Shown: positions 2 through 7,524, numbered from the stretch's first letter. The stretch is 27,048 nucleotides of DNA from Pseudomonadota bacterium (GCA_014584455.1 JACTMV010000308.1:1-27048), one strand, 5' to 3'. Translations and numbers: made by a program. The notes: a model not told the origin generated them from the letters alone.

Positions 2-673
2 ACCGCCAGCATGGCGCTCGACGACGCCGGCAAGCTCGCCGGCCTGACCTTCGTGCCCCGGCCGCCGCTGCCGCCCGATCCCCACGCCGACCGCCCGCTG
101 CGCGCGCGCCTGCGCCTGCCCTTCGACGGTCAGTGGTTCGTGTTCTGGGGCGGACCCAGCGCCACGGTCAACTACCACGTGGTCGCCCCCGACCAGCGTC
201 ACGCCTACGACCTCGTGATCTGGAAGGACGGCGGCACCCACACCGGCGACGGCACCCGCAACGAGCAGTATCACTGCTGGGGCCAGCCGGTGCTGGCGCC
301 GGCCGCCGGCACGGTCGTCGCCGTCGAGAACGGCCTGCCCGACAACCCGCCGGGCAAGATGGACGCGAGCGCCAAGGCCGGCAACCACGTCGTGCTCGAT
401 CTCGGCGACGGGGCCCACGCGCTCCTCGCCCACCTGCAACAGGGTTCGGTCGCGGTGCGGCTCGGCGATCGGGTCACCGCCGGCCAGCGGCTCGGCCTCA
501 CCGGCAACAGCGGCAACACCAGCGAGCCCCACCTGCACCTCCACCTCCAGGACGGCCCCACCCTGTTCCGCGGCGCCGGCCTGCCGGTGTGGTTCGACGA
601 CGCCTGCGTCGACGGTCAGCCGCCGGCGCGGGTCGCCCCGGTGCACGGCCAGTTCGTCGAGCACTGCCGCTGA
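2..673 (+). CDS. M23/LytM-family zinc metallopeptidase, probably 5'-truncated by the window edge
   Basis: The translation contains the M23 signature region GLTGNSGNTSEPHLHLHL, with a His-x-His metal-binding motif, and upstream HxxxD-like segments. It has no signal peptide, and the frame stays open back to nt 2, so the N-terminus probably lies outside the window. The TGA stop is at 671-673. Confidence 0.7.
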   Translation, partial: TASMALDDAGKLAGLTFVPRPPLPPDPHADRPLRARLRLPFDGQWFVFWGGPSATVNYHVVAPDQRHAYDLVIWKDGGTHTGDGTRNEQYHCWGQPVLAPAAGTVVAVENGLPDNPPGKMDASAKAGNHVVLDLGDGAHALLAHLQQGSVAVRLGDRVTAGQRLGLTGNSGNTSEPHLHLHLQDGPTLFRGAGLPVWFDDACVDGQPPARVAPVHGQFVEHCR

Positions 674-689
674 CGCCCGCCGCGGCGCA

Positions 690-714
690 GAGCGTGTGAA
701 GGAATCACACGCTC
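690..714. terminator. Perfect 10-bp-stem hairpin (GAGCGTGTGA-AGGAA-TCACACGCTC) between convergent genes. It may be a bidirectional terminator, or a TGTGA-N5-TCACA regulator site.
   Basis: Pairing checked by eye: 690-699 pairs with 714-705 around a 5-nt loop. It lies 17 nt after the M23 stop and about 190 nt after the stop of the minus-strand gene ending at 901. It is AT-containing in a GC-rich background. No U-tract follows, which is usual for high-GC genomes. Confidence 0.3.
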
Positions 715-900
715 GGGTCGATCGGTCGGTCCCGGCGAGGACGCCGGCGCCGACCTGAGTCGGAGCCGATCGCCTCGGCTGCGCCTCGGCGCAGAGCCTG
801 TCATCGAATCGATGCCAGGCTCTCTCTCGATCGATCGACCTCGCCCGCTGACGGGCTCGTCCGATCTCCTCCGGACCAGCGCCGCACCGCTGCGCTCGGC

Positions 901-1911
901 TCAGGCGGCGCGCTCGTCCAGGTGCCGCCGCACCAGCCGCGCGCACCACGCGATCGCGCCGGTCGCCAGCAGCAAGCAGACGACGAACAGCGGCAGGCCC
1001 TGGGCGCCGTCGAGCGTCGCCCGCCACTCGATGGCGTGGGCGCGATCGACCTCGCGCAGCGCCGCCACCGCGAGGAACAGCGCGACCGCGCCGACGGTGG
1101 CCAGCCGTCGCCCCGCCCGCCCGCGCCCGCCGGCGAGCGCGATCATCCCGGCCGCGGTCACCGCCGCGCCGCTCCCCGCCAGCACCAGCCACGGCGTGGC
1201 CATCGCCGGCAGCTCGCCGGCGCGCCCGCCGACCGTCCCCACCGCCGCCGCCGCCGCCACCGCCAGGCCGGTCAGCCCGAGCCCGCCCAGGCGGCGCAGC
1301 TCGGCGCGTCCCGCCCGCGCCCCGGCCAGCCACGCCGCGCCGGTCGCGAACGCCACCGCCGCCAGCCCCAGCCACAGCGCCAGGCGGACGGCGATCACCG
1401 GGTCGCGGTGGAACACGCGCCCGTCGCGGTAGTGCGCGACCCAGGTCTCGGCGCCGGCCGCGGCCAGGGTGTGCTCCTCGATCCACGACCACGCGACGAA
1501 GAGGAACGCGAGCAGGGCGGCGCCGCTCACCAGCCCCCGCCGCGCCCCCGACCACGCCCGCGCCCGCACGCTCTTGCCCAGGTACAGCAGGTAGAAGCCG
1601 GCGATGAGCGCCGGCACGATCGCCATGAACCGGTGCGACATGAGGAGCGTCGCCGTGTACACGCGGTGCTGGTAGAGGACCTGGATCAGCAGCAGCGGCG
1701 CCACCCCGGCGGTGATCGCCGCGCCGAGTGCGAACGGCAGCCAGTCGCGGGCCGCCGCCGCCACCGGGTCGTCGCCGCCGACGAGCGCCCGCGCCGTCGC
1801 CCACGCCGCCGCGCCCAGCACGAAGCCGACGAGCAGCGCGTGGGCGGCGAAGGTGACCACGAGCAGGAGCACGTAGCCCCCCGGGCCACCGAGCTCGGCG
1901 AACAGGCTCAT
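901..1911 (-). CDS. Polytopic integral membrane protein, about 336 aa with roughly 8 TM segments. It is the last gene of a three-gene operon.
   Basis: This is the C-terminal segment of the 1379-aa artefact ORF and begins at MSLFAELGG (ATG at 1909-1911). It is hydrophobic and helix-rich, with none of the Arg-rich junk composition. Its ATG overlaps the TGA of the upstream gene (ATGA at 1908-1911), which suggests translational coupling. Confidence 0.6.
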   Translation of the reverse strand: MSLFAELGGPGGYVLLLVVTFAAHALLVGFVLGAAAWATARALVGGDDPVAAAARDWLPFALGAAITAGVAPLLLIQVLYQHRVYTATLLMSHRFMAIVPALIAGFYLLYLGKSVRARAWSGARRGLVSGAALLAFLFVAWSWIEEHTLAAAGAETWVAHYRDGRVFHRDPVIAVRLALWLGLAAVAFATGAAWLAGARAGRAELRRLGGLGLTGLAVAAAAAVGTVGGRAGELPAMATPWLVLAGSGAAVTAAGMIALAGGRGRAGRRLATVGAVALFLAVAALREVDRAHAIEWRATLDGAQGLPLFVVCLLLATGAIAWCARLVRRHLDERAA

Positions 1912-3383
1912 CGCGCACCCCCGCGCCCGCCACCCGTGGCCTCGCCCGGCGGCCGCGGCCGCTCCGGCGCCGGCGCGGTGCCGGCCTCGTCGAGCCAGCG
2001 CCCGATCTGCGCCAGCGCCACCGGGTCGTCGGACACCGGCCAGGCGGCCGGCGCGCCCGCCGCCTCCCAGCGGATGAGCTGGGCCACCGCCTCGACCTCG
2101 GTCGCCGGCCCGGCGAACGGCGGCATGAAGCCCTTGGTCTCCTGCAGGCGCGCGATCGCGATGCGGAGCTGCTCGAGCGACCAGGCGCCGCCGAGGTGGA
2201 CCAGGCCGTTGGCGCCCTTCATCGTGTGGCAGGCCGCGCACTGCAGCCGCACCACGCGCGCGCCGAGGGCGAGCTGCGCCGTCGGGTAGCGCGCGGCGTC
2301 GCGCAGCGGGTACGGGTCCCGCGCCACCGAGCCCTCGGCGCGCAGCCGCGCGACCTCGGCCGGCGCGATGGCGTTGGAGTACAGGACCTGGCGGATCGTG
2401 AACGGCTTGCGCGCGCCCTCGCGCACGAACTCGCCGGCGGCGGTGGCGCCGAACGCCAGCGCCAGCAGGAGCGCCGCGGTCGCGCCGCTCACGTACAGGC
2501 GCCGCCACCAGATCCCGACGAGCGCGTAGGCGCCGATCAGCAGCGACGCCCCGGCGGCCAGGGCCAGGAACATCGACATCGCGACGCTGCCCCCGGTCAG
2601 CCACGCCCGGCTGTCGGCGGGGATCACCGCCACGTACCACAGCCCCAGCGCCGGCATCGCCGCCATCGGCACCAGCAGGCGCGCGGCGCGGGCGAGGAGG
2701 GCGTGGCGCGCGGCGCGGTCCAGGTCCATCGTGTTGATGACGGCGATCGCGGCCAGCGCCCCCAGCGTGCTCGACACCGCGACCCGGTAGAGCAGCGACG
2801 GCCAGAAGCTGGGGTTGAAGAAGCCGGCCCACACGTCGCCGGAGGCCAGCCACGCCCCCGGGGTGAGCTGCCACGACAGGATGCCGTTGATCCAGAACAG
2901 GCTGCCGAACGACGCCAGCGCGTAGGTGGCGAGCAGGCGCAGGCGCACGCCGTCGGGCAGGCGCTCGCCGTAGCGCAGGAACATGTAGCCGGCGACGATC
3001 TCGACCGCGAAGCAGCACCACTCGATCGCCCAGATCCAGTGGAACTCGTCGACCATGAGCCCGATCGTGCGCGGCCCGACCTGGATCGTCGTCAACCACA
3101 TCGCCACGCCGGTCAGGGCGCCGGTGACGAAGCTGACCAGCACCAGGTACTTGAAGAAGCTGTCGAGGAAGCGGCGCGCGTCGGGCACGCCGCGCCCGGC
3201 CAGCCACTGGAAGTACGTCATCAGGAACCCGCCGCCGATCGCGAACTGGGCGAGGAAGACGTGGAGGATGCCGACCGCGCCGATGACCATGCCGCGCATC
3301 GCCGGACCGAAGTCGTTGACCGGGTAGGCGGTCGGCTCCATCCCCGCTGGGATGATGCCACCGCCGGCGCCGGCATGCGTCAT
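1908..3383 (-). CDS. Polytopic membrane protein with a C-terminal monohaem cytochrome c domain (CAACH). The N-terminal membrane domain may be CydA/cytochrome-bd-like.
   Basis: The 491-aa protein has about 8-9 hydrophobic helices followed by a soluble roughly 100-aa domain carrying CxxCH (..RLQCAACHTMKG..) with a downstream Met (FMPPF) as a candidate sixth ligand. Conserved His and Glu residues sit in TM1-3 (ILHVFLAQF, DEFHWIWAIEW) and are reminiscent of CydA haem-ligand and proton-channel residues. That resemblance is inference only. Confidence 0.65.
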   Translation of the reverse strand: MTHAGAGGGIIPAGMEPTAYPVNDFGPAMRGMVIGAVGILHVFLAQFAIGGGFLMTYFQWLAGRGVPDARRFLDSFFKYLVLVSFVTGALTGVAMWLTTIQVGPRTIGLMVDEFHWIWAIEWCCFAVEIVAGYMFLRYGERLPDGVRLRLLATYALASFGSLFWINGILSWQLTPGAWLASGDVWAGFFNPSFWPSLLYRVAVSSTLGALAAIAVINTMDLDRAARHALLARAARLLVPMAAMPALGLWYVAVIPADSRAWLTGGSVAMSMFLALAAGASLLIGAYALVGIWWRRLYVSGATAALLLALAFGATAAGEFVREGARKPFTIRQVLYSNAIAPAEVARLRAEGSVARDPYPLRDAARYPTAQLALGARVVRLQCAACHTMKGANGLVHLGGAWSLEQLRIAIARLQETKGFMPPFAGPATEVEAVAQLIRWEAAGAPAAWPVSDDPVALAQIGRWLDEAGTAPAPERPRPPGEATGGGRGGAR

Positions 3384-3428
3384 CGCGTCGCGGCGATCCG
3401 CCGGCCGCGTGGCTCGCCCCGCCTTCGC

Positions 3429-4973
3429 TCAGGGCGCGAGGCGGGCGACGAAGGCGTCGGGCCTGGCCAGCTTGGCGCCCTCGGCCTGGACCGCGGTCGG
3501 CCCGCCGGGGACGAGATCGAGCGTGAAGCGGTAGGCGCCCGAGACGTAGGGCGTGCCGTCGCGGCCGATGGCCACCGCCAGCCCGACGTCCTGATCCTTG
3601 GCCCCCCAGCGCCGGCTCCACGCGTGGTTGCCGGCGGCGTCGAGCTTGAGGAAGAAGCCGTCCATGTAGCCGGCGGTCTTGAACGGGCCACCGCCGAGGT
3701 CGATCGTGGTCTCGAAGCCGCCCACGACCACCAGGTTGCCGGCGGCGTCGGTGGCGACGCCGAGCCCGACGTCGGCGCGCTCGCCGCCGTAGGTCTTGAC
3801 CCACAGGAGCTTGCCCTCGGGCGACAGCCGGGCCACGAACACGTCGGACTCGCCCTTCGACAGCACCGGCGTCCCCAGCACGTCGAGGTCCTTGTCGAAC
3901 GAGCCGGTGATCACGACGTGGCCGGCGGGGTCGACGGCGAGCCCGCCCGCCCGCTCCTGGAACGGGTTGCCGAGGCGCACGCTCCACACGTGGTTGCCCA
4001 CCGCATCGAAGCGGGCCACGAACAGGTCGTCGTCGCCGGCGCTCTTGTGGGTGGTGCCGCCGAGCGTGATCGTGCCCTTGAAGCGGCCGAGGGCGTAGAT
4101 GTTGCCGGCGGGGTCGACGGCGACGTGGCTCACCTCGTCGGGGTACTCGCCGCCGAGCTGGGTCACCCACTCGACCTCGCCGCCGGCCCCGAGCTTGACC
4201 AGCGCCGCGTCGTCGCCGCCGCGCGAGGTCACGGTGGTCGCGCCCAGCGCCACCTCCTGGCCGAACGACACGGCGACGATCCAGCCGCCGTCGCCGGCGG
4301 CGGCGATGGCGGTGGCGGCGTCGGAGGCCGGGCCGCCGGCGGTCCACAGCCACTGCACCTCGCCGGCGGGGTCGAGGCCGACCACGAACAGGTCGTCGGA
4401 GCCGGTCGCCTTGCCGCTCAACCCGCCGGCGGTGACCGTGGCCGAGAAGAGCCCGGTGGCGGCGACGTTGCCCTTGTCGTCGACCGCGACCGCGTCGCCC
4501 CGCTCCTCGTGCTTGCCGCCGATCGTCGTCACCCAGGTCACCGCGCCGCTGGCGTCGAGGCGGGCGACGAAGGCGTCGCTCTTGCCGGCCGCGGTGCGCG
4601 CGCCGGCGCCGGCGAAGGTCGCGGCCTCCTCGAAGTCGCCCACCGCGTAGACCGCGCCGTCGCCGCCGACCGCGAGCCGCCGCACGATGTCGACCCGGGT
4701 GCCGCCGAGGCTCGTGACCCAGGCCACCGCGCCGGTGGCGCCCGGCGGCGACTCGGCCAGCGGGGGCAGCGGACGCGGCGGCGGCGCCACCCGCGGCTCG
4801 GCCGGCGCCGCGCTGCCGGAGGCGCTGCCGGACCCGCTGCCGGCGCCGTCGCGCTCGACCTTGCCGGCCCCGGCCTTGCCGGCCGGCTCCTTCTTGCCGC
4901 AGGCGACGAGGGGAACGGCCAGGGTCAGCGCGACCGGGCCGACGAGGGCGAGCGAGACGAGGCGTGTGCGCAT
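3429..4973 (-). CDS. Lipoprotein with SBBP-type beta-propeller repeats
   Basis: Signal peptide plus lipobox (LVAC-GKK). There are more than 8 tandem repeats of about 45 aa of the form DDLFVARL..G...W...GG...D.G.GVAVD..GN..V.G.F, typical of the SBBP repeat family. ATG at 4971-4973 and stop at 3429-3431. It sits 45 bp upstream of the cytochrome gene on the same strand. Confidence 0.8.
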   Translation of the reverse strand: MRTRLVSLALVGPVALTLAVPLVACGKKEPAGKAGAGKVERDGAGSGSGSASGSAAPAEPRVAPPPRPLPPLAESPPGATGAVAWVTSLGGTRVDIVRRLAVGGDGAVYAVGDFEEAATFAGAGARTAAGKSDAFVARLDASGAVTWVTTIGGKHEERGDAVAVDDKGNVAATGLFSATVTAGGLSGKATGSDDLFVVGLDPAGEVQWLWTAGGPASDAATAIAAAGDGGWIVAVSFGQEVALGATTVTSRGGDDAALVKLGAGGEVEWVTQLGGEYPDEVSHVAVDPAGNIYALGRFKGTITLGGTTHKSAGDDDLFVARFDAVGNHVWSVRLGNPFQERAGGLAVDPAGHVVITGSFDKDLDVLGTPVLSKGESDVFVARLSPEGKLLWVKTYGGERADVGLGVATDAAGNLVVVGGFETTIDLGGGPFKTAGYMDGFFLKLDAAGNHAWSRRWGAKDQDVGLAVAIGRDGTPYVSGAYRFTLDLVPGGPTAVQAEGAKLARPDAFVARLAP

Positions 4974-5101
4974 GGTTCCTCTGGGGACACCGCGAGAGCC
5001 CTGACGTTGTCATGGCATCGCCTCCCAGGGCAACGCGCACTTCGAGGGAACCGCCGCGGCGCCGCGTTGTCCAACTCGCCGCGGCAGGCTATCTCTCCCT
5101 C

Positions 5102-5308
5102 ATGCGCGTGGTCGGAGATGACGACGGCGTCGCGGCGCTCAAGGCGCTGGCCGCCGACAACCGTGACTACCTCAAGTTCCTGATCACCGAGGCGCAGTCC
5201 AACAGCGACCACACCGCCTCCTTCCGCGCCGCCGACGACACCCGCTGGGTGGTCCGCTTCCACCCGGAGTCGGGCGAGCTCGAGGTGCGACGCGCCCCCG
5301 CGCCGTGA
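5102..5308 (+). CDS. Small hypothetical protein of about 68 aa
   Basis: This is the second half of the 114-aa ORF, from MRVVGDDDGVAALKALAADNRDYLKFLITEAQSNSDHTASFRAADDTRWVVRFHPESGELEVRR. It has strong GC3 codon bias and a normal, non-Arg-rich composition. It lies in the divergent region next to the SBBP operon. No homolog was recognised. Confidence 0.35.
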   Translation: MRVVGDDDGVAALKALAADNRDYLKFLITEAQSNSDHTASFRAADDTRWVVRFHPESGELEVRRAPAP

Positions 5309-5322
5309 CGTATGGTCGCACC

Positions 5323-7524
5323 ATGCGGGTGCCCCTCCTCCTCGTCCCCCTCGCCCTCGCCCTCGCCGTCACCGGCTGCCCCCGTCCCGGCGCCACCGGC
5401 GAGCCCCGCCCCGATGACCGCCCGCTGACCCGCGAGGACCGCCTCCAGGTCGCGCGGCTCGAGGCCCAGCGCGACGCCGCGGTGCCTCGCCTGATCGAGC
5501 TGACGCGGGATCCCTCGGTGGCCCGCCGCGCCCTCGCCCTGCGCGCCCTGGGCCGGATCGGCAGCCCCGCCGCCGTCGCCGCGCTGCGCGCCGCCCTCGC
5601 CGGCGACGCCGCGGTCACCGCCAGCGCCGCGCTCGGCGTGGCCGGGGCCACCGGCGCGCTCGAGCCCGACGTGGGGGCCGCGATCACCTCCGAGCTGGCG
5701 AAGGTGACCGCCGCCGGCGCCGATCGCGCGACCGTGATCGAGGCCCTCGGCCGCGTCGCCCACCCGACGGCGGCCGCGACCGTGGGCGGCGCCCTGGGCA
5801 GCCGCGACCGCGAGGTCGCCATCGCCGCCGGGATCGCGCTCGGCCGCCTCGGCCGCGCCCAGGTGCCCCTCGACGAGTCCACCGAGCTGGCCGCGATCGG
5901 GCGCAGCCGCGACGACGATCCCGACGTCCGCTTCGCCGCCACCTACGCCCTGGCGCGGGCCCACATCCCGGCGAGCACGCCGCCGCCGGCCGCCACCGAT
6001 CCGGTGGTGCGCGCGCTGCGCGACCGCCTGACCGACCCCGAGCCGCTGGTGCGCGCCACCGCCATCACCGGCCTGGCCGCGCGCCGCGCGGTGCCGGTCA
6101 CCACCCCGGCCCTCCTCGATCGCCTCGACGACAGCGACTGGCGGGTCGCGGTCGAGCTGGTGCGCGCCCTGGGCGGCCCCGCCGGCACCCCCGAGACCCG
6201 CAAGGCGCTGGTCGCCTTCCTGGCCCGGATCGCCAGCGAGTGGGCGGCGGGCCGGATGAGCGCGCCGTTCGCCCACGTCCTCCTCGAGGGGCTGCGCCAG
6301 CTCCCCGCCCGCGCCTCCGATCCGCGGGTGCGCGGCCTCCTGGTCTCGATCGCCCGCAGCTACGCCGACGAGCCGCCGGGCCGCCGCCCGCGGGCGCTGC
6401 AGCTCGCGTCGGCGTGGGCGAGCTGCCTGGCCCTGGCGGCGCTGGCCCGGCCGCTGCCCGAGACGCCGCCCGGCGACGCGCTCGGCGATCCGGAGGTGGC
6501 GCGGGCGCAGCTCGACGGCTGCGGCGCCGGCCTCGTCCCCGAGGCCGAGGTGCGCAAGCTCGTCCTCGACGTGAGCGCCGAGCGCGGCGGCGCCGACGCC
6601 GTCCGCCGCCTCGCCCTGTCGGCGGGCCACGGCGACGTCCGCATCGCCGCCCACGCCGTCGGCCTCCTGCCCGGCCTGTGGACGCCGGCCTCCCACGGCG
6701 AGCGCATCCTCCTCGCCGACGCCCTCGCCGGCGCCGTCGCGCGCGCCGAGGCCGCGGTGGCCGGCGCCGCCGCCGAGGCCAGCGGCCCGCTCCTGGCCGA
6801 GCACGGCCAGGCCGGCCCGCTGGCGTCGGTCGCCACCGCCGTCGTCGATCGCCTCGCCGCCGGCGGCGATCCCGAGCTGGTGACCGCGCTGCTCGGCGCC
6901 ATCGCCCGGGCCCGGCTCGACGCGCTGCCGGCGTGCCAGGCGCTGCGCACCGACCCCAGCCCGCCGGTGCGCGCCGCCGCCCGCGCCTGCGTCACCGCGC
7001 TGGTCGGCGAGGACCCGGGGCCGGCGACCGCGGCGGCCGCGGCCGTGGCGCCGCCGATCGATCCGCTGGTCGCGCTCGGCGGCGCCCGCACCTGGCGCCT
7101 GACCACCACCCAGGGCGAGGTCGCGATCGCGCTCGCCGGCGACCTCGCGCCCTGGCACGTCGCCGCGATCATCACCCTCACCCGCAGCGGCTTCTACGAC
7201 GGCCTCACCTTCCACCGCGTCGTGCCCGGCTTCGTCATCCAGGGCGGCGATCCCACCGGCTCGGGCTGGGGCGGCCCCGGCTACACGCTGCCGGCCGAGC
7301 CCGGCTCGCGCCTCGACGCGCCGGCCCCCACCTACGGCCCGGGCGCGGTCGGGGTCGCCGACGCCGGCAAGGACAGCGGCGGCTCGCAGTGGTTCGTCAT
7401 GCACGGGCGGGCGCCGCACCTCGACGGCCGCTACACCTGGATCGGGGCGGTGACCGAGGGCGCGGACGTCTTCGACCGGCTGCTGCAGGGCGATCGCGTC
7501 ATCCGCGCCCGCGTCGAGCCCTGA
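5323..7524 (+). CDS. Lipoprotein with N-terminal HEAT (PBS-lyase-like) repeats fused to a C-terminal cyclophilin-type peptidyl-prolyl cis-trans isomerase
   Basis: Signal peptide plus lipobox (LAVTGC) starting at MRVPLLLV (ATG 5323). There are multiple (D/E)PxVRxxAxxALxxxG HEAT-like repeats. The C-terminus carries cyclophilin motifs: FHRVVPGFVIQGGDPTGSGWGG and GGSQWFVMHGRAPHLDGRYTWIGAVTEG. The ORF track's start at 5305 is an upstream GTG in the same frame. Confidence 0.85.
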   Translation: MRVPLLLVPLALALAVTGCPRPGATGEPRPDDRPLTREDRLQVARLEAQRDAAVPRLIELTRDPSVARRALALRALGRIGSPAAVAALRAALAGDAAVTASAALGVAGATGALEPDVGAAITSELAKVTAAGADRATVIEALGRVAHPTAAATVGGALGSRDREVAIAAGIALGRLGRAQVPLDESTELAAIGRSRDDDPDVRFAATYALARAHIPASTPPPAATDPVVRALRDRLTDPEPLVRATAITGLAARRAVPVTTPALLDRLDDSDWRVAVELVRALGGPAGTPETRKALVAFLARIASEWAAGRMSAPFAHVLLEGLRQLPARASDPRVRGLLVSIARSYADEPPGRRPRALQLASAWASCLALAALARPLPETPPGDALGDPEVARAQLDGCGAGLVPEAEVRKLVLDVSAERGGADAVRRLALSAGHGDVRIAAHAVGLLPGLWTPASHGERILLADALAGAVARAEAAVAGAAAEASGPLLAEHGQAGPLASVATAVVDRLAAGGDPELVTALLGAIARARLDALPACQALRTDPSPPVRAAARACVTALVGEDPGPATAAAAAVAPPIDPLVALGGARTWRLTTTQGEVAIALAGDLAPWHVAAIITLTRSGFYDGLTFHRVVPGFVIQGGDPTGSGWGGPGYTLPAEPGSRLDAPAPTYGPGAVGVADAGKDSGGSQWFVMHGRAPHLDGRYTWIGAVTEGADVFDRLLQGDRVIRARVEP

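Follow-up and report, generated by a model that had tools for sequence, protein, structure and literature searches.

A CydA-like membrane protein fused to cytochrome c and its co-inherited partner: a probable OR-C1 pair of the cytochrome bd superfamily

We analysed a stretch of bacterial DNA of 27,048 nt labelled Pseudomonadota bacterium (GCA_014584455.1 JACTMV010000308.1:1-27048), hereafter the window, and within it the region 901-4973, where three genes follow one another on the minus strand (Table 1). In the direction of reading, gene 1 encodes an SBBP beta-propeller lipoprotein, gene 2 a membrane protein with a C-terminal cytochrome c domain and gene 3 a second membrane protein. An initial annotation made from the sequence had described these genes, the gap between the first two and the overlap of the last two, and all of these features are indeed present. 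Genes 2 and 3 very probably belong, as a pair, to the OR-C1 family of the bd superfamily, which is made up of qOR, OR-C and OR-N (Murali, Gennis and Hemp, 2021; bioRxiv 10.1101/2021.01.16.426971). As described there, OR-C1a is a CydA of about eight helices that has no quinol site, keeps H19, E99 and E107 and carries a C-terminal periplasmic haem c extension, while OR-C1b is the adjacent second subunit, stated to have eight helices, often named 'hypothetical protein' and in many cases with 0 CxxCH motifs.

Our comparisons drew on a library holding at least 1334 close homologues of gene 2, with 785 representatives of 50%-identity clusters, and on a genome scan that found relatives in 348 species; 80 loci were kept for neighbourhood analysis. 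These loci come from the Myxococcota (Kofleriaceae, Haliangiales, Polyangium), the Planctomycetota (Planctomycetaceae, Pirellulaceae, Phycisphaerae), the Tectomicrobia and the Eiseniibacteriota. The identical stretch recurs in L001, a metagenome-assembled genome (MAG) that bears the label 'uncultured delta proteobacterium PRO4', and in L082, an 80-kb contig from a metagenome. Since the closest relatives of the locus are found in Kofleriaceae and Myxococcales MAGs, the host is a member of the Myxococcota.

Of the three genes, only 2 and 3 form a conserved unit. In 75 of the 80 loci gene 2 is followed directly, on its own strand, by a gene 3 homologue; the contigs of the remaining five end at that point. 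The two genes are closely spaced across loci (median projected gap of about 17 nt) and their identities co-vary (Spearman rho=0.77, n=53). No gene besides the pair is kept across phyla in the 80 loci, so the conserved unit comprises these two genes, and the three-gene operon described in the initial annotation is a local gene order only.

The transmembrane core of gene 2 resembles CydA, the first subunit of cytochrome bd oxidases. Gene 2 matches PF01654 (Cyt_bd_oxida_I) over residues 38-246 with E=1.2e-12 and 47.5 bits, above the gathering score of 26.2 bits. A family profile built from 50 diverse members and searched with HMMER against PDB sequences matched the solved CydA chains of Geobacillus (5DOQ, chain 5doq_A; E=3.3e-17), M. 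smegmatis (9R2G, chain 9r2g_A; 4.5e-10) and E. coli (bd-II, 6e-8; bd-I, 3.8e-5). These CydA matches needed the family profile, as the single protein searched with phmmer against PDB sequences gave weak cytochrome c6 matches only. In the AlphaFold2 (AF2) model of gene 2 (predicted local distance difference test, pLDDT, 75; predicted template modelling score, pTM, 0.65), eight long helices span the membrane and a small helical c-type domain comes after them. The top 20 Foldseek matches of this model in the PDB are all bd oxidase subunits, with CydA first (E 6e-6 to 2e-3) and the next match at E=0.5.

The residues that serve the active-site haem and the proton channel of E. coli CydA find counterparts in this core. 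His41, which also matches the haem-ligand His in the first transmembrane helix (TM1) of Geobacillus CydA, is kept in 98 of the 101 sequences used for residue conservation (the query and 100 full-length 50%-identity-cluster representatives, 23-62% identical to it), and Glu121 and Glu128 are kept in 97 and 98 of them. Six residues separate the two glutamates, as they do Glu99 and Glu107 in qOR2/3/4a, OR-C and all families but qOR1, which has seven (Murali, Gennis and Hemp, 2021). The initial annotation had proposed the likeness to CydA from two short motifs, ILHVFLAQF and DEFHWIWAIEW; both are in the protein, and the likeness holds in the domain, profile and fold searches as well as at these residues. 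For the signature positions S145 and Y119 there is agreement with the family consensus, at S161 and at position 135, the latter being Tyr in 84 of the 101 sequences and Phe in gene 2.

The haem b558 ligands have no counterpart. In the alignment to Geobacillus CydA the equivalents of His186 and Met393 are both missing: TM5 of gene 2 contains no His, and Tyr199 occupies the His186 position beside a near-invariant Arg200. The Q-loop is absent, the loop between TM6 and TM7 being about 15 residues long, and neither the AF2 model nor the hydropathy profile has a TM9. After TM8, the family carries the motif G-E-F-V-R-E-G-A-R-K-P-F, which pairs with E. coli G440-W-F-V-A-E445-Y-G-R448-Q-P450-W. In a second colinear stretch, HMMER aligned this end of TM8 with the same motif in 5doq_A and 9r2g_A (conditional E 9.6e-6), and E322, R325 and P327 are kept in 94-100% of the family representatives. 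Because these three residues are conserved and their motif is aligned with E445, R448 and P450 of CydA, the comparison suggests that E322 is the counterpart of Glu445 and that the second ligand of the active-site haem is retained. Both axial-ligand positions of the active site (His19, Glu445) may thus survive, in which case haem c would replace the haem b558/quinol module only.

Two further positions set the clade of gene 2 apart from most of the family. His115 (3039..3041) is invariant in close relatives, whereas 69 of the 101 sequences have Val there, 55 of these with His at position 112 (Asp in gene 2), and Gln172 (2868..2870) stands where 93 of the 101 keep Met.

The C-terminal part of gene 2 matches PF13442 (Cytochrome_CBB3) over residues 370-435 (E=3.8e-6), and the same part of the family profile matches cytochromes c6, CcoP and QcrC. 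The CAACH motif and the distal Met that had been pointed out in the initial annotation are present, CAACH being the single CxxCH of the protein. Across the family, CxxCH is kept in 95-98% of the representatives and Met420 in 93 of the 101 sequences. One CxxCH is the commonest state (54 of 100 representatives), followed by two (18), eight (16) and three (3), a spread that agrees with the published one; Table S7 of the 2021 survey lists many monohaem OR-C1a members, and the survey records OR-C in the Myxococcota and Planctomycetota (Murali, Gennis and Hemp, 2021). The N-terminal segment of gene 2 is without Lys or Arg, and most of the positive charge is held by the odd-numbered loops, the even-numbered ones having 0-1 such residues. 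With eight helices, loops that follow the positive-inside rule and an N-terminus free of Lys and Arg, as in CydA, where it is periplasmic, the cytochrome c domain is predicted to lie in the periplasm, the side where covalent haem attachment occurs, in agreement with the placement first suggested for it.

The start of gene 2 is uncertain (3341..3383). The homologues listed are about 460-470 residues long and the closest of them open with MEPTA or MDPTA, which corresponds to Met15, while an independent gene call on the 80-kb contig L082 places the start at Met1. A clear ribosome-binding site is absent at both candidate starts.

Gene 3 gave no match in Pfam (PF02322 included) or NCBIfam, and none to PDB sequences with phmmer. 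A Pfam scan of 27 homologues returned no meaningful family, and all source names among the matches listed are 'hypothetical protein'. The AF2 model (pLDDT 89.4, pTM 0.89) has nine membrane helices, and the hydropathy profile likewise shows nine hydrophobic segments, with a basic C-terminal tail consistent with an out-to-in topology; the eight helices counted for this protein in the initial annotation fall one short. All of the top 20 Foldseek matches of the model are bd oxidase subunits. The partner had been thought CydB-like, and this is borne out for its bd subunit fold but not for its sequence, which has neither the PF02322 domain nor significant homology to CydB. When profiles were compared in global mode, the first half of gene 3 was paired with the second half of gene 2, probably as a result of an internal two-bundle symmetry.

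As modelled, the fold of gene 3 does not by itself tell an origin from CydB from an origin as a duplicate of CydA. Individual residues are more telling. In 64 of 66 family members TM1 carries a His (His24), and all 66 have the motif R286-E287-x-x-R290 at the end of TM8. An R-E-x-x-R after helix 8 is common to both subunits (R321-E322-x-x-R325 in gene 2; compare E445-x-x-R448 in CydA), and E. coli CydB has neither the TM1 His nor an ExxR at the end of TM8. His24 and the R-E-x-x-R motif suggest that gene 3 is a CydA duplicate. In the scheme of Murali, Gennis and Hemp (2021), 'b' subunits lack the Glu99/Glu107 proton channel and are proposed to be CydA duplicates; gene 3 fits this rule, since its TM3 (residues 85-113) contains no Asp or Glu.

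Table 1. Features of the three-gene region, in window coordinates
Feature	Position	Strand	Description or basis
Gene 1, SBBP beta-propeller lipoprotein	3429..4973	-	514 aa; Pfam SBBP, lipobox
Gap between genes 1 and 2	3384..3428		45 nt
Gene 2, OR-C1a-type subunit: CydA-like 8-helix core and C-terminal monohaem cytochrome c	1908..3383	-	491 aa (477 aa if the start is Met15, 3341)
Gene 2 transmembrane core, residues 27-324, TM1-TM8	2412..3305	-	AF2 helices, hydropathy, alignment to Geobacillus CydA
Gene 2 His41, counterpart of E. coli CydA His19 (axial ligand of the active-site haem)	3261..3263	-	Alignment
Gene 2 Glu121 to Glu128, counterparts of E. coli Glu99 and Glu107 (proton-channel pair)	3000..3023	-	Alignment
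Gene 2 EFVREGARKP, E318-P327, periplasmic end of TM8	2403..2432	-	Aligns with CydA motif W441-FVA-E445-YG-R448-Q-P450
Gene 2 class I cytochrome c domain, residues 369-467	1983..2279	-	PF13442; cytochrome c6, CcoP and QcrC matches
Gene 2 CAACH (C382/C385/H386)	2226..2240	-	Sole CxxCH in gene 2
Gene 2 distal Met420 (in MPPF)	2124..2126	-	Conservation
ATGA, overlap of gene 2 stop (TGA) and gene 3 start (ATG)	1911..1908	-	Sequence read; translational coupling
Gene 3, OR-C1b-type partner	901..1911	-	336 aa, nine transmembrane helices, no CxxCH
Gene 3 His24, TM1	1840..1842	-	64/66 family members
Gene 3 R286-E-V-D-R290, end of TM8	1042..1056	-	R286-E287-x-x-R290 in 66/66 family members

The locus agrees with OR-C1 in every sequence-level feature but the helix count of the partner (nine here, eight as published): it combines an eight-helix CydA-like subunit without a quinol site, a C-terminal periplasmic haem c and an adjacent partner free of CxxCH. 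What the initial annotation took for a poorly described variant is therefore a family that has already been named. Its comparison with the 'bd-like oxidases' of Nitrospira leads to a distinct branch of the same superfamily, OR-N. The quinol site is missing there too, but OR-N proteins, with their 10-14 helices, carry no fused haem c, and their operons also encode PetAB-like subunits or other donors (Murali, Gennis and Hemp, 2021); none of these features occurs here.

The canonical CydAB oxidases (E. coli bd-I, 6RKO; Geobacillus, 5DOQ; M. smegmatis, 9R2G) share with our pair the fold of both subunits, the His19 and Glu445 positions, the proton-channel glutamates, the ExGRxP(W/F) motif after TM8 and the organization as a heterodimer whose two pseudo-symmetric subunits are the products of neighbouring genes. 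They differ in that subunit a, as we call the product of gene 2, is here without haem b558 ligands, Q-loop and TM9, a covalent haem c being the presumed electron entry, and in that subunit b, the product of gene 3, has CydA-like ligand positions and no significant sequence similarity to CydB. No small subunit of the CydX, CydS or CydH type was seen, though no search was aimed at one. A parallel for the partner is offered by CydAA' (qOR4a/qOR4b) of Caldivirga maquilingensis, in which the second subunit is a CydA duplicate that has kept His19 and lost E99 and E107. For no other 'a/b'-type bd enzyme has reduction of O2 been demonstrated (Murali, Gennis and Hemp, 2021), but CydAA' is archaeal, oxidises quinol and has no haem c. 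Finally, the CydA with a fused periplasmic cytochrome found in cable bacteria has the same architecture and poses the same question of function; most cable bacteria are without a CydB-type large subunit (10.64898/2026.01.20.700514), whereas the partner is always present in our loci.

Beyond family membership, we favour by analogy, with moderate confidence, the fuller proposal that this OR-C1 pair would catalyse a copper-free reduction of O2 by cytochrome c. A periplasmic electron carrier would reduce the fused, His/Met-ligated haem c of subunit a, which would take over from haem b558 and the Q-loop as the site where electrons enter and hand them to the haem or haems held by His41 and Glu322 in the TM1-4/TM8 core. 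There, O2 would be reduced to water with cytoplasmic protons delivered through the Glu128/Glu121 channel. With electrons drawn from the outside and protons from the inside, the enzyme would generate a membrane potential without copper. Subunit b, with its nine helices and the same fold, translationally coupled to subunit a and always co-inherited with it, would take the structural role of CydB and would be, in appearance, a CydA duplicate minus the proton channel.

Should the H24/E287 positions of gene 3 bind haem as H41/E322 of gene 2 would, the pair could even be a copper-free cytochrome c oxidase with b/d-type haems in both subunits, in this lineage perhaps tied to an OxyR response. We regard this extension as speculative and unlikely. 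To our knowledge, none of the solved bd oxidases has haems in both subunits, and their second subunit is haem-free.

Several points weigh against the proposed O2 reduction and the assignments that underlie it. No biochemical data, enzymology, structure or clear physiology for any OR-C enzyme was found in the literature searched, and O2 reduction by OR-C is extrapolated from canonical bd oxidases; the role of an oxygen reductase working with cytochrome c was assigned by homology in the 2021 survey, which recorded OR-C in 532 of 24,706 GTDB genomes (Murali, Gennis and Hemp, 2021). The AF2 model of gene 2 reaches only moderate confidence (pLDDT 75). The equivalence of E322 with E445 comes from a short stretch without significance of its own, and Table S6 of the survey scores Glu445 and Trp441 as absent in OR-C1a, whereas the counterpart of Glu445 is kept in our alignment, a further difference from the published family. 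Profile-profile comparisons of the gene 3 family with the gene 2 family, E. coli CydA and CydB were all non-significant (HHalign E=0.09-0.3 where homology to CydA was sought), so that the homology of gene 3 to bd subunits rests on structure. An electron donor was sought in the neighbourhood: in none of the 80 loci does a neighbouring open reading frame (ORF) up to 3 kb from the pair contain a CxxCH, and no donor-subunit gene is conserved.

The physiology of one relative also sits poorly with an aerobic role alone. SMUL_0150 of Sulfurospirillum multivorans, listed as OR-C1a in Table S7 (bioRxiv 10.1101/2021.01.16.426971), was 39.5-fold more abundant in anoxic cells adapted to pyruvate fermentation, and its level was also raised in S. 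cavolei under anoxia (PMC6242987, Table 2). Because SMUL_0150 rises under pyruvate fermentation, a purely aerobic role should not be assumed. The cable-bacteria preprint, for its part, leaves the role of the CydA-cytochrome fusion open between an O2-reducing and an electron-exporting reading (10.64898/2026.01.20.700514).

The first alternative is that the pair detoxifies rather than respires, as a cytochrome c-dependent membrane peroxidase or a scavenger of O2 or NO within an oxidative-stress response. Canonical bd oxidases are indeed known for peroxidase and catalase side activities and protect anaerobes from O2. In 22 of the 80 loci an oxyR gene (best NCBIfam match OxyR, 2.5e-75; GHCLRDQAL..VC motif) lies just downstream of the pair, as in the regions L005:5866-7974, L013:10400-12614 and L020:10779-12863, and in 8-9 loci ahpC and ahpD stand between the two. 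This neighbourhood hints at a link to oxidative stress, and many sulfate reducers carry OR-C (Murali, Gennis and Hemp, 2021). However, oxyR and ahpCD are found only in Myxococcota-type loci, mostly from relatives of Kofleriaceae and Haliangiales, and in none of those labelled Planctomycetota, Polyangium or Tectomicrobia; the association may therefore be an inherited gene order, confined as it is to one lineage. For our own locus, the extended contig L082 shows an oxyR gene at 12439-13359, 1.4 kb past gene 3 and outside the window, whose product is 57% identical to the cluster representative, but an M23 peptidase gene on the opposite strand splits it from the pair and no ahpCD is adjacent. We consider a primarily detoxifying function unlikely.

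Electrons might also flow in the opposite direction, with the core oxidising quinol and haem c passing electrons to periplasmic acceptors in the manner of CymA. This is one of the two hypotheses put forward for the cable-bacteria fusion (10.64898/2026.01.20.700514); it would suit the strong induction of a family member during anoxic fermentation (PMC6242987) and the existence of multihaem members with eight or more CxxCH. Such an export route nevertheless calls for a way in for quinol electrons, and the pair lacks the Q-loop and the His186/Met393 haem b558 site that provide it in solved bd oxidases, while conservation falls on the residues of the O2 site and the proton channel. We therefore hold electron export to be quite unlikely.

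A third possibility is that the enzyme truly has three subunits, with the SBBP lipoprotein acting as a periplasmic partner of the other two. Gene 1 has a Pfam SBBP match (E=1.3e-7) and a lipobox LVAC with Cys25; its score against NCBIfam NF047494 (LipL53 family), 118.8 bits, is below the curated cut-off of 400 bits, so that only the generic SBBP repeat passes threshold. It lies on the same strand and 45 bp from gene 2, without a terminator-like site in the gap, and the closest relatives (L001, L004, L005, L029) share this gene order. A scan of positions 500..5500 gave no promoter-like sites and two terminator-like sites, both inside coding sequence, against 0.9 expected by chance, and is uninformative at a GC content of 75%. 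Beyond the closest relatives the association dissolves. Only about 10 of the 80 loci have an SBBP lipoprotein near the pair, none of them from Planctomycetota or Polyangium; in L002 and L003 a kinase-like gene on the opposite strand stands between lipoprotein and fusion gene, L007 has the lipoprotein gene about 3.8 kb upstream, and L032 has it on the opposite strand. Gene 1 also has no redox motif, its single Cys being that of the lipobox, and no CxxCH. The initial annotation was thus right about the local gene order, but the lipoprotein is a lineage-specific neighbour outside the conserved unit, and its membership of a three-subunit enzyme is very improbable.

The position just upstream of the pair is occupied by other genes elsewhere. 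In ten loci of Haliangiales/Kofleriaceae type (L009, L014, L016, L021, L025, L040, L053, L061, L074 and L077) the same-strand gene found there is, as judged by eye, a putative VanX-type D-Ala-D-Ala dipeptidase (SxHxxGxAxD ... EWWH) and not an SBBP lipoprotein. A second 'CydA-like' ORF seemed to lie upstream in 14 loci; these are over-extended ORFs, the real part of which has no CxxCH and looks by eye like a VanX-type D-Ala-D-Ala dipeptidase, and this candidate operon member was dropped.

Finally, some database names for homologues read 'cytochrome bd ubiquinol oxidase subunit I', but an ordinary CydAB quinol oxidase (qOR) that has been misread is ruled out for practical purposes by gene 2, where a covalent-haem motif takes the place of Q-loop, His186/Met393 and TM9, and by gene 3, which has no PF02322 match and carries the TM1 His and end-of-TM8 ExxR that E. 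coli CydB does not.

The other genes of the window are unrelated to the pair and encode an M23 peptidase, a HEAT-cyclophilin protein, MscS, a homologue of the major vault protein, a VIT-VWA protein and an M50B peptidase. Because the window has a GC content of about 75%, many long spurious ORFs occur in other frames. The M23 peptidase ORF (11..673, plus strand) is the C-terminal part of a 358-aa gene that starts outside the window, as seen in L082. The vault gene (9000..11537, plus strand) codes for a bacterial protein of 845 aa that is homologous to the eukaryotic major vault protein (Pfam MVP_shoulder 2.2e-25, Vault_3 8e-8), and its stretch has a GC content of 0.68-0.69 versus 0.72-0.82 over the remaining window. 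Two genes beyond it, at 12636..15092 (plus strand), lies an 818-aa protein with VIT, VWA and P_proprotein domains, and a second VIT-VWA protein of 850 aa is found on the other side of the locus (L082:15375-17927). VIT and VWA form the domain pair of VPARP, the eukaryotic vault partner.

The pair is a further member of a family already described from genomes in 2021, in a phylum from which that family was already recorded, and does not represent a new kind of system. What it adds are details: a candidate counterpart of Glu445, an R-E-x-x-R motif shared by both subunits, a partner of nine helices in which the ligand positions are CydA-like, and the OxyR neighbourhood. The locus offers a clean monohaem example in a family that has cultured members (Polyangium), and its residue predictions are open to test: H41, E322 and the R-E-x-x-R motif of both subunits, together with H24/E287 in the partner. 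If these proteins do form a copper-free O2 reductase driven by cytochrome c, they would provide a fourth route from cytochrome c to oxygen besides aa3, cbb3 and caa3, and the reconstruction of respiratory chains would change for the Myxococcota, the Planctomycetota, sulfate reducers and cable bacteria.

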